Of a DNA stretch of 41,194 nt, positions 36,347-37,497 are shown in pieces. Below the pieces are notes generated by a model. That model was not told the DNA's origin. It did not search any database and saw only the letters and a list, made by a program, of their open reading frames with translations. The translations under genes were made by a program, and so were the position numbers. Origin of the DNA: Teseptimavirus T7; the sequence record PP384395; one strand, written 5' to 3'. The stretch's first letter is position 1; each line of letters starts with the position of its first letter.

Positions 36347-36507
36347 TACCCACGCCGAAACAAGCGCTCATGAGCCCGAAGTGGCGAGCCCGATCTTCCC
36401 CATCGGTGATGTCGGCGATATAGGCGCCAGCAACCGCACCTGTGGCGCCGGTGATGCCGGCCACGATGCGTCCGGCGTAGAGGATCGAGATCTCGATCCC
36501 GCGAAAT
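36347..36507 (+). other. Plasmid backbone fragment (pBR322 tet-region sequence that lies upstream of the T7 promoter in pET-type vectors), includes a BglII site at 36488..36493
   Basis: acccacgccgaaacaagcgctcatgagcccgaagtggcgagcccgatcttccccatcggtgatgtcggcgatataggcgccagc...gatcgagatctcgatcccgcgaaat recognised as pET vector sequence; not T7. Confidence 0.85.
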
Positions 36508-36530
36508 TAATACGACTCACTATAGGGAGA
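36508..36530 (+). promoter_or_regulatory. Second, cassette-borne copy of the T7 phi10 promoter with gene-10 leader/RBS (36531..36586); no lac operator
   Basis: ttaatacgactcactatagggagaccacaacggtttccctctagCaataattttgtttaactttaagaaggagatataCCATGG; one mismatch to native leader in the XbaI site, NcoI at the start codon. Confidence 0.95.
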
Positions 36531-36586
36531 CCACAACGGTTTCCCTCTAGCAATAATTTTGTTTAACTTTAAGAAGGAGATATACC

Positions 36587-37297
36587 ATGGTGAGCAAGGG
36601 CGAAGAAGATAACATGGCCATCATCAAGGAGTTCATGCGCTTCAAGGTGCACATGGAGGGCTCCGTGAACGGCCACGAGTTCGAGATCGAGGGCGAGGGC
36701 GAGGGCCGCCCCTACGAGGGCACCCAGACCGCCAAGCTGAAGGTGACCAAGGGTGGCCCCCTGCCCTTCGCCTGGGACATCCTGTCCCCTCAGTTCATGT
36801 ACGGCTCCAAGGCCTACGTGAAGCACCCCGCCGACATCCCCGACTACTTGAAGCTGTCCTTCCCCGAGGGCTTCAAGTGGGAGCGCGTGATGAACTTCGA
36901 GGACGGCGGCGTGGTGACCGTGACCCAGGACTCCTCCCTGCAGGACGGCGAGTTCATCTACAAGGTGAAGCTGCGCGGCACCAACTTCCCCTCCGACGGC
37001 CCCGTAATGCAGAAGAAGACCATGGGCTGGGAGGCCTCCTCCGAGCGGATGTACCCCGAGGACGGCGCCCTGAAGGGCGAGATCAAGCAGAGGCTGAAGC
37101 TGAAGGACGGCGGCCACTACGACGCTGAGGTCAAGACCACCTACAAGGCCAAGAAGCCCGTGCAGCTGCCCGGCGCCTACAACGTCAACATCAAGTTGGA
37201 CATCACCTCCCACAACGAGGACTACACCATCGTGGAACAGTACGAACGCGCCGAGGGCCGCCACTCCACCGGCGGCATGGACGAGCTGTACAAGTAA
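36587..37297 (+). CDS. mCherry: mCherry red fluorescent protein (synthetic reporter, mammalian-type GC-rich codons)
   Basis: 236-aa [56 protein letters not shown]...GGMDELYK matches mCherry. Confidence 0.97.
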
Positions 37298-37348
37298 CTC
37301 GAGCGAGCTCCCGGGGGGGGTTCTCATCATCATCATCATCATTAATAA
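37298..37348 (+). other. Polylinker (XhoI, SacI, SmaI) plus untranslated 6xHis codons and tandem stops, downstream of the mCherry stop
   Basis: ctcgagcgagctcccgggggggg ttct catcatcatcatcatcat taataa; mCherry stop taa at 37295..37297 precedes it. Confidence 0.9.
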
Positions 37349-37391
37349 AAGGGCGAATTCCAGCACACTGGCGGCCGTTACTAGTGGATCC
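37349..37391 (+). other. Cloning-vector polylinker scar (TOPO/pCR-type: EcoRI, SpeI, BamHI)
   Basis: aagggcgaattccagcacactggcggccgttactagtggatcc. Confidence 0.75.
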
Positions 37392-37450
37392 GGCTGCTAA
37401 CAAAGCCCGAAAGGAAGCTGAGTTGGCTGCTGCCACCGCTGAGCAATAAC

Positions 37451-37497
37451 TAGCATAACCCCTTGGGGCCTCTAAACGGGTCTTGAGGGGTTTTTTG
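37451..37497 (+). terminator. Second, cassette-borne copy of the Tphi terminator (pET T7 terminator region 37393..37497)
   Basis: 105-bp block gctgctaacaaagcccgaaaggaagctgagttggctgctgccaccgctgagcaataactagcataaccccttggggcctctaaacgggtcttgaggggttttttg identical to native 24107..24211. Confidence 0.95.

Follow-up and report, generated by a model that had tools for sequence, protein, structure and literature searches.

Results

Organization of the locus downstream of gene 17

The DNA analysed here (record PP384395, 41,194 nt, referred to as the window) comprises a complete T7 genome whose terminal repeats measure 160 bp according to a repeat search. Downstream of gene 17 it contains a foreign segment (36287-37557), a 1,271-bp PCR cassette that reaches from the gene 17 stop codon to 43 bp before the start of gene 17.5. 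BLAST junctions align positions 1-36286 with 1-36285 of the T7 reference V01146 and positions 37557-41194 with T7 36300-39937, and wild-type T7 sequence is back at 37558 (T7 36301). Fifteen bp of the gene 17/17.5 spacer (T7 36286-36300, TTGGTAAATCACAAG) are absent from the junction because primer placement leaves them out; they do not represent a deletion that occurred in the phage. The only backbone differences from V01146 are an additional A at 1896 and a G for A at 22630 (T7 22629), the latter resulting in an N227S exchange in gp9. The extra A is a known correction of the V01146 reference.

The cassette is framed by two synthetic linkers, oho1 and oho2, the former abutting the gene 17 stop codon (Table 1). 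Behind oho1, plasmid backbone DNA opens with the sequence of primer pIVEX2.3d-seq1-s (TACCCACGCCGAAACAAGC). A 140-bp portion (36347-36486) is a remnant of pBR322 tet(C), and many plasmids carry tet(C) with 100% identity to it. Through this stretch the phage shares homology with pBR322/pET-type plasmids and with natural tet(C) plasmids possibly present in a host.

A class III promoter joined to the gene 10 leader should show the sequence TAATACGACTCACTATAGGGAGA, the 5' stem-loop of gene 10, the TTAACTTTAAGAAGGAG enhancer with the Shine-Dalgarno sequence and, 7-8 nt further on, a start codon. In the cassette, the 23-bp consensus TAATACGACTCACTATAGGGAGA is located at 36508-36530, the leader agrees with the native copy in 83 of 84 positions and the ATG lies at 36587. 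In the GenBank records of two sister phages the element is labelled 'T7 promoter added for mCherry cassette', and a segment identical to the reading frame of the window is annotated as mCherry in both of them (PP384397 and PP384393). A 265-aa ORF runs antisense to mCherry on the minus strand (36569-37366); most likely, it is no gene but an artefact of codon optimisation and high G+C content in the reporter. The mCherry stop codon is followed by a His6 coding run (CATx6) and two stops, so that the tag is unfused and the pIVEX polylinker untranslated.

The reporter is followed by a second copy of the T7 terminator Tphi. This copy is predicted to form a 15-bp hairpin with a U6 tail (-41.2 kcal/mol, z = -3.0), in accordance with the G+C-rich hairpin and U-run expected of this terminator, and matches the native block, which lies near T7 24210, in 105 of 105 positions. 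A simple terminator scan did not flag Tphi at 37440-37497 despite the folded hairpin and U6, which we take to be a limit of the scan, as it misses known T7 terminators. As a consequence of the insertion, a strong class III promoter and then a second Tphi are now located between gene 17 and the holin/terminase/Rz genes (17.5-19, 37601 onward). Wild-type T7 has no T7 promoter from phi17 to phiOR. The cassette may therefore change expression of genes 17.5-19 through polarity or an altered read-through balance.

Table 1. Features of the gene 17 insertion and of the corresponding native loci (window coordinates)
Feature	Position	Strand	Basis or remark
Native phi10 class III promoter and gene 10 leader	22882..22965	+	Left copy of 84-nt repeat; repeat search
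Native Tphi block	24107..24211	+	Left copy of 105-nt exact repeat; repeat search
oho1, synthetic 60-nt 'orthogonal' assembly linker	36287..36346	+	Exact match to 5' part of primers gp17-oho1-as and oho1-mcherry-s
Plasmid backbone upstream of T7 promoter, pIVEX2.3d/pET type	36347..36501	+	Primer and tet(C) matches
Cassette phi10 promoter and gene 10 leader ('T7p14' promoter, UTR1 RBS)	36502..36585	+	Right copy of 84-nt repeat
mCherry ORF, 236 aa and stop	36587..37297	+	Translation identical to mCherry sequence
Untranslated vector remnant: polylinker, His6 run, stops, BamHI junction	37298..37392	+	Direct reading
Cassette Tphi block	37393..37497	+	Right copy of 105-nt exact repeat
oho2, synthetic 60-nt assembly linker	37498..37557	+	Exact match to primers gp17-oho2-s and oho2-mcherry-as

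At the native loci, window positions equal T7 positions plus one. The V01146 annotation places promoter phi10 at T7 22904 and gene 10A at T7 22967-24004, and the gene 10 reading frame of the window begins at ATG 22968. To the native Tphi block the frameshift extension of gene 10B contributes its final 57 nt, and the remainder is the hairpin and U-run of the Tphi terminator. The V01146 entries for these elements are T7 24162 (end of 10B) and T7 24210 (Tphi).

The cassette creates two long direct repeats

A search for repeats across the whole window recovered the phi10 promoter with the gene 10 leader in two copies (84 nt, 99% identity) and the Tphi block in two copies (105 nt, 100% identity). 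Both pairs are direct, with a start-to-start spacing of 13,620 bp for phi10/leader and 13,286 bp for Tphi. The sole mismatch between the leader copies is a native A at 22931 (tctagA), which sits within an intact XbaI site (TCTAGA), versus a C at 36551 in the cassette (tctagC). On either side of it the 84-nt copies are identical, over 49 and 34 nt. These results bear out the first-pass annotation, which had described a duplication of phi10/leader and Tphi in direct orientation with one mismatch in the leader. Its Tphi coordinates are exact, while the leader ends that it placed at 22962 and 36583 fall 2-3 nt short of the true ends, 22965 and 36585.

Repeats of this length are far beyond what base composition or the wild-type genome provides. 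The longest exact internal repeat of the window measures 105 nt, compared to 14.7 nt on average and at most 18 nt in dinucleotide-preserving shuffles (n=30). In wild-type T7 with the terminal repeats trimmed, the longest such repeat reaches 30 nt, approximately the length of the promoter core common to phi10 and other T7 promoters. Both pairs combine the properties of recombinogenic repeats that could serve unequal exchange or single-strand annealing, namely the same orientation, high identity and a length well over natural background. The cassette promoter (36502-36530) also shares exact matches of 27-29 nt with phi13 (27252-27280), phi6.5 (18525-18551) and phiOR (40465-40491). As these are of the same size class as the 30-nt repeat of wild-type T7, they add nothing beyond natural background.

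Identity of the construct

The PHEIGES study (Levrier et al. 2024, Nat Commun, PMC10933291) describes an mCherry cassette with T7 promoter, strong RBS and T7 terminator that was placed downstream of genes 1, 10 or 17. The fragments predicted from the window have the published sizes (T7D1, 5837; T7D2, 3697), and the gene-specific primer parts map to the junctions (Supplementary Data 2). The two backbone variants, +A at 1896 and A>G at T7 22629, are listed by that study for all T7 genomes of its laboratory, purchased stock included (Supplementary Data 3). Junction primers, fragment sizes and stock variants of the g17 phage T7-mC-g17-o are all present in the window, and the study reports confirmation of the g17 insertion by NGS.

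Comparison with the sister phages points in the same direction. The 1,270-bp insert recurs with 100% identity at a different genomic site in PP384397 ('T7_mCg1o'), and its first 1,211 bp are present in PP384393 ('T7_mCg10o'). The window shares the stock variants, the cassette sequence and the linkers with the PHEIGES phages, and insertion site and fragment sizes are as published. From T7-mC-g17-o as published, the window shows no detectable difference; among the phage records searched, none matched the junction query over 80% or more of its length.

Vector origin of the repeats and of the leader mismatch

The expression signals of pET and pIVEX vectors, i.e. phi10 with the gene 10 leader and Tphi, were first cloned from T7 itself. 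Thus, re-insertion of pET-type signals into T7 makes a second direct copy of each. The cassette copies serve the reporter as promoter/RBS and as terminator, their status as repeats being incidental. With the pET/pIVEX2.3d cassette the window insert shares a promoter-leader region matching native T7 in 83 of 84 and a Tphi block matching it in 105 of 105 positions, the tet(C) stub on the BglII side and the BamHI-Tphi junction. It differs from that cassette in the missing lac operator, in TCTAGC instead of TCTAGA and in a His6 run that is not fused to the reporter.

The C in place of the native A was found in the cassettes of all three phages and is therefore a property of the plasmid template and not a phage mutation. 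Judged by the pBEST/UTR1 plasmids of the Noireaux laboratory, the change is presumably an XbaI/NheI ligation scar. As anticipated by the first-pass annotation, the A/C difference can be used as a marker for gene conversion. In the window as well as in T7_mCg1o and T7_mCg10o it is unconverted, with A in the native and C in the cassette copy.

Predicted products of recombination between the copies

Pairing of a native copy with its counterpart in the cassette could be brought about by the T7 recombination/annealing machinery or by replication slippage. Product sizes were computed from the geometry of the repeats, and viability was deduced from the gene content and length of each product. Exchange between the phi10 copies removes 13,620 bp with genes 10-17 and leaves 27,574 bp (69% of the wild-type length), placing mCherry behind the native phi10. 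Exchange between the Tphi copies removes 13,286 bp with genes 11-17, the cassette promoter and mCherry, and leaves 27,908 bp. The geometry thus agrees with the earlier proposal that native-by-cassette exchange would delete genes 10-17 or 11-17. For the deleted genes other than gene 10, essentiality follows from established T7 genetics. Since the lost genes encode capsid, tail, internal core and tail fibre, we infer with good reason that both deletions would be lethal. Gene 10 is called essential in PMC12664982. The reciprocal duplications would reach 54.8 kb and 54.5 kb, some 137% of the wild-type length. With an extra packaging capacity of T7 given as '<2 kb' in PMC10933291, genomes of approximately 54.5-54.8 kb would be too long to package.

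As all products of a single exchange are expected to be dead or unpackageable, the arrangement should be stable and rearrangements should not spread. Recombinants would be lost in every generation, and the plaque-forming population would hold the designed structure together with a small load of dead genomes. No recombination product is visible in the window itself, a single consensus genome with the designed structure and an unconverted marker base, and this speaks against the proposed exchange.

Precise removal of the reporter by a single exchange is excluded on geometry. The first-pass annotation had suggested that recombination between native and cassette copies might also drop or scramble the reporter. 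This part of the proposal does not stand for single exchanges, which cannot give a viable phage, but it does for double exchanges. Of the events at these repeats, only a double exchange across both could remove the reporter and leave a packageable genome. It would replace the 807-bp mCherry segment with a 1,141-bp gene 10 segment, giving 41,528 bp (+1,591 bp relative to wild type). Such a product would probably be packageable; it exceeds the parent in length, and no advantage is evident. The cassette also contains microhomologies of 8-11 nt, e.g. 36700/37252 and 36596/37349. Deletions between them would be simpler viable routes to reporter loss.

Reported frequencies of homologous recombination in phages range from 1e-4 to 1e-8, with approximately 1.5e-4 for rescue of T7 gene 10 (PMC12664982). 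A literature search of accessible full texts returned no T7-specific rate for repeats of about 100 bp. No stability or passage data on the g17 phage were found in the accessible parts of PMC10933291 or of the 2025 follow-up, which uses the gene 10 site.

A Tphi repeat is missing from the deposited genome of the sister phage T7_mCg10o

In the g10 construct the same cassette was designed to stand next to the native terminator. The g10-o primer gp10-oho2-s anneals at window 24070-24089, upstream of native Tphi, and from this primer design the published T7C2 size of 6550 bp was reproduced (PMC10933291). The designed order is cassette Tphi, oho2 (60 nt), 37 bp and native Tphi, with the two 105-nt copies 202 bp apart. 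The deposited sequence PP384393 contains one Tphi, lacks oho2 and equals the design minus exactly 202 bp. Its phi10/leader pair, which encloses the essential gene 10A, is intact. The discrepancy lies at 2625-3835 of L002 (PP384393), matching window 24006-24211. No mention of the mismatch between design and deposit was found in the text and supplement of PMC10933291 as far as these are accessible.

Discussion

The window is very probably the complete genome of the engineered phage T7-mC-g17-o, in which the duplications of phi10/leader and Tphi are an ordinary by-product of a pET-type cassette and recombinants arising by single exchange purge themselves. The construct is published and the type of liability is known; the duplication is a trivial consequence of placing such a cassette in T7.

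A natural duplication in a wild T7-like phage, or a chimeric mis-assembly with reads from a contaminating pET plasmid, would also produce second copies of both signals. pET-like plasmids are common contaminants of sequence collections, and several 'bacterial plasmid' records in PLSDB match the flanks of the cassette. However, the insert directly adjoins the stop codon of gene 17, and the synthetic linkers of 60 nt at its two ends equal the published primers exactly. Moreover, the same 1,270 bp reside elsewhere in PP384397, the fragment sizes fit the published assembly map and mCherry is a synthetic gene. The chance that either of these origins applies is negligible; the synthetic linkers and exact primer matches rule them out.

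A different concern, which accepts the engineered origin, is that the repeats are an instability source of practical importance, with the reporter being lost or scrambled on passage, for instance by two-flank ectopic gene conversion with the gene 10 locus. The flanks of 84 and 105 nt are both homologous and ordered as at the native locus, the 1,591 bp gained by a phage with two gene 10 copies remain below the '<2 kb' limit stated in PMC10933291, and the sister construct is short of exactly one Tphi repeat period. Promoter duplication is also known to destabilise inserts in other viral vectors (PMC6855363). Nevertheless, ectopic conversion requires two exchanges within very short homologies whose partners are 13 kb away, and for the longer product no benefit is obvious. 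All three sequenced genomes retain the unconverted marker base, the g17 insertion was NGS-confirmed according to PMC10933291, and reporter loss has simpler viable routes at the microhomologies of 8-11 nt within the cassette. We therefore regard it as improbable that the repeats matter much for stability in practice. It is equally doubtful that the cassette and the gene 10 locus act as a two-flank homology pair that gives rise to viable two-gene-10 phages (41.5 kb) or a converted marker. If they did, the collapsed Tphi pair of the sister would be a first sign of frequent intragenomic exchange in these engineered T7 genomes, and the three PHEIGES phages would form a ready series for following T7 repeat recombination as a function of distance and product viability.

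The 202 bp missing from T7_mCg10o could have been lost in vitro by exonuclease III resection past the 60-nt linker and annealing of the two Tphi copies. PHEIGES assembly uses exonuclease III resection and annealing, and resection of more than 60 nt would expose both copies. The same collapse could have arisen by recombination during phage replication, or it could be an artefact of read assembly or consensus calling. Judged from the sequences, the pattern in this sister, with the Tphi pair reduced to one copy and the pair around gene 10A intact, fits the idea that repeats collapse whenever the product is viable and lends it indirect support.

Deletion between direct repeats in T7 was reportedly described by Studier in 1979 and by the Masker laboratory in 1991-94. 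In plant virus vectors based on TMV and PVX, insert loss through repeats after promoter duplication is well known (review PMC6855363). The engineered T7 phage resembles these vectors in that a cis-acting signal is duplicated in direct orientation and becomes a substrate for homologous deletion. In TMV and PVX vectors, however, the repeats flank only the insert and deletion is thus viable and selected for, whereas the repeats of the window flank 13 kb of essential genes, which makes deletion self-eliminating. It is the sister phage T7_mCg10o that resembles the TMV and PVX vectors, its designed Tphi pair enclosing only approximately 97 bp of dispensable sequence.

In summary, the value of these observations is practical, for the design of reporter phages and for a critical reading of genomes deposited 'as designed', and does not extend to new biology. 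The discrepancy between design and deposit of the sister phage is the one small point worth passing on. Any pET-type cassette put into T7 duplicates phi10 and Tphi, and the outcome would be set by the DNA between the copies. Where they enclose essential genes, the construct is protected since recombinants die. Where they enclose only dispensable DNA, as in the g10 design, the repeat would collapse and the recovered genome would depart from its design.
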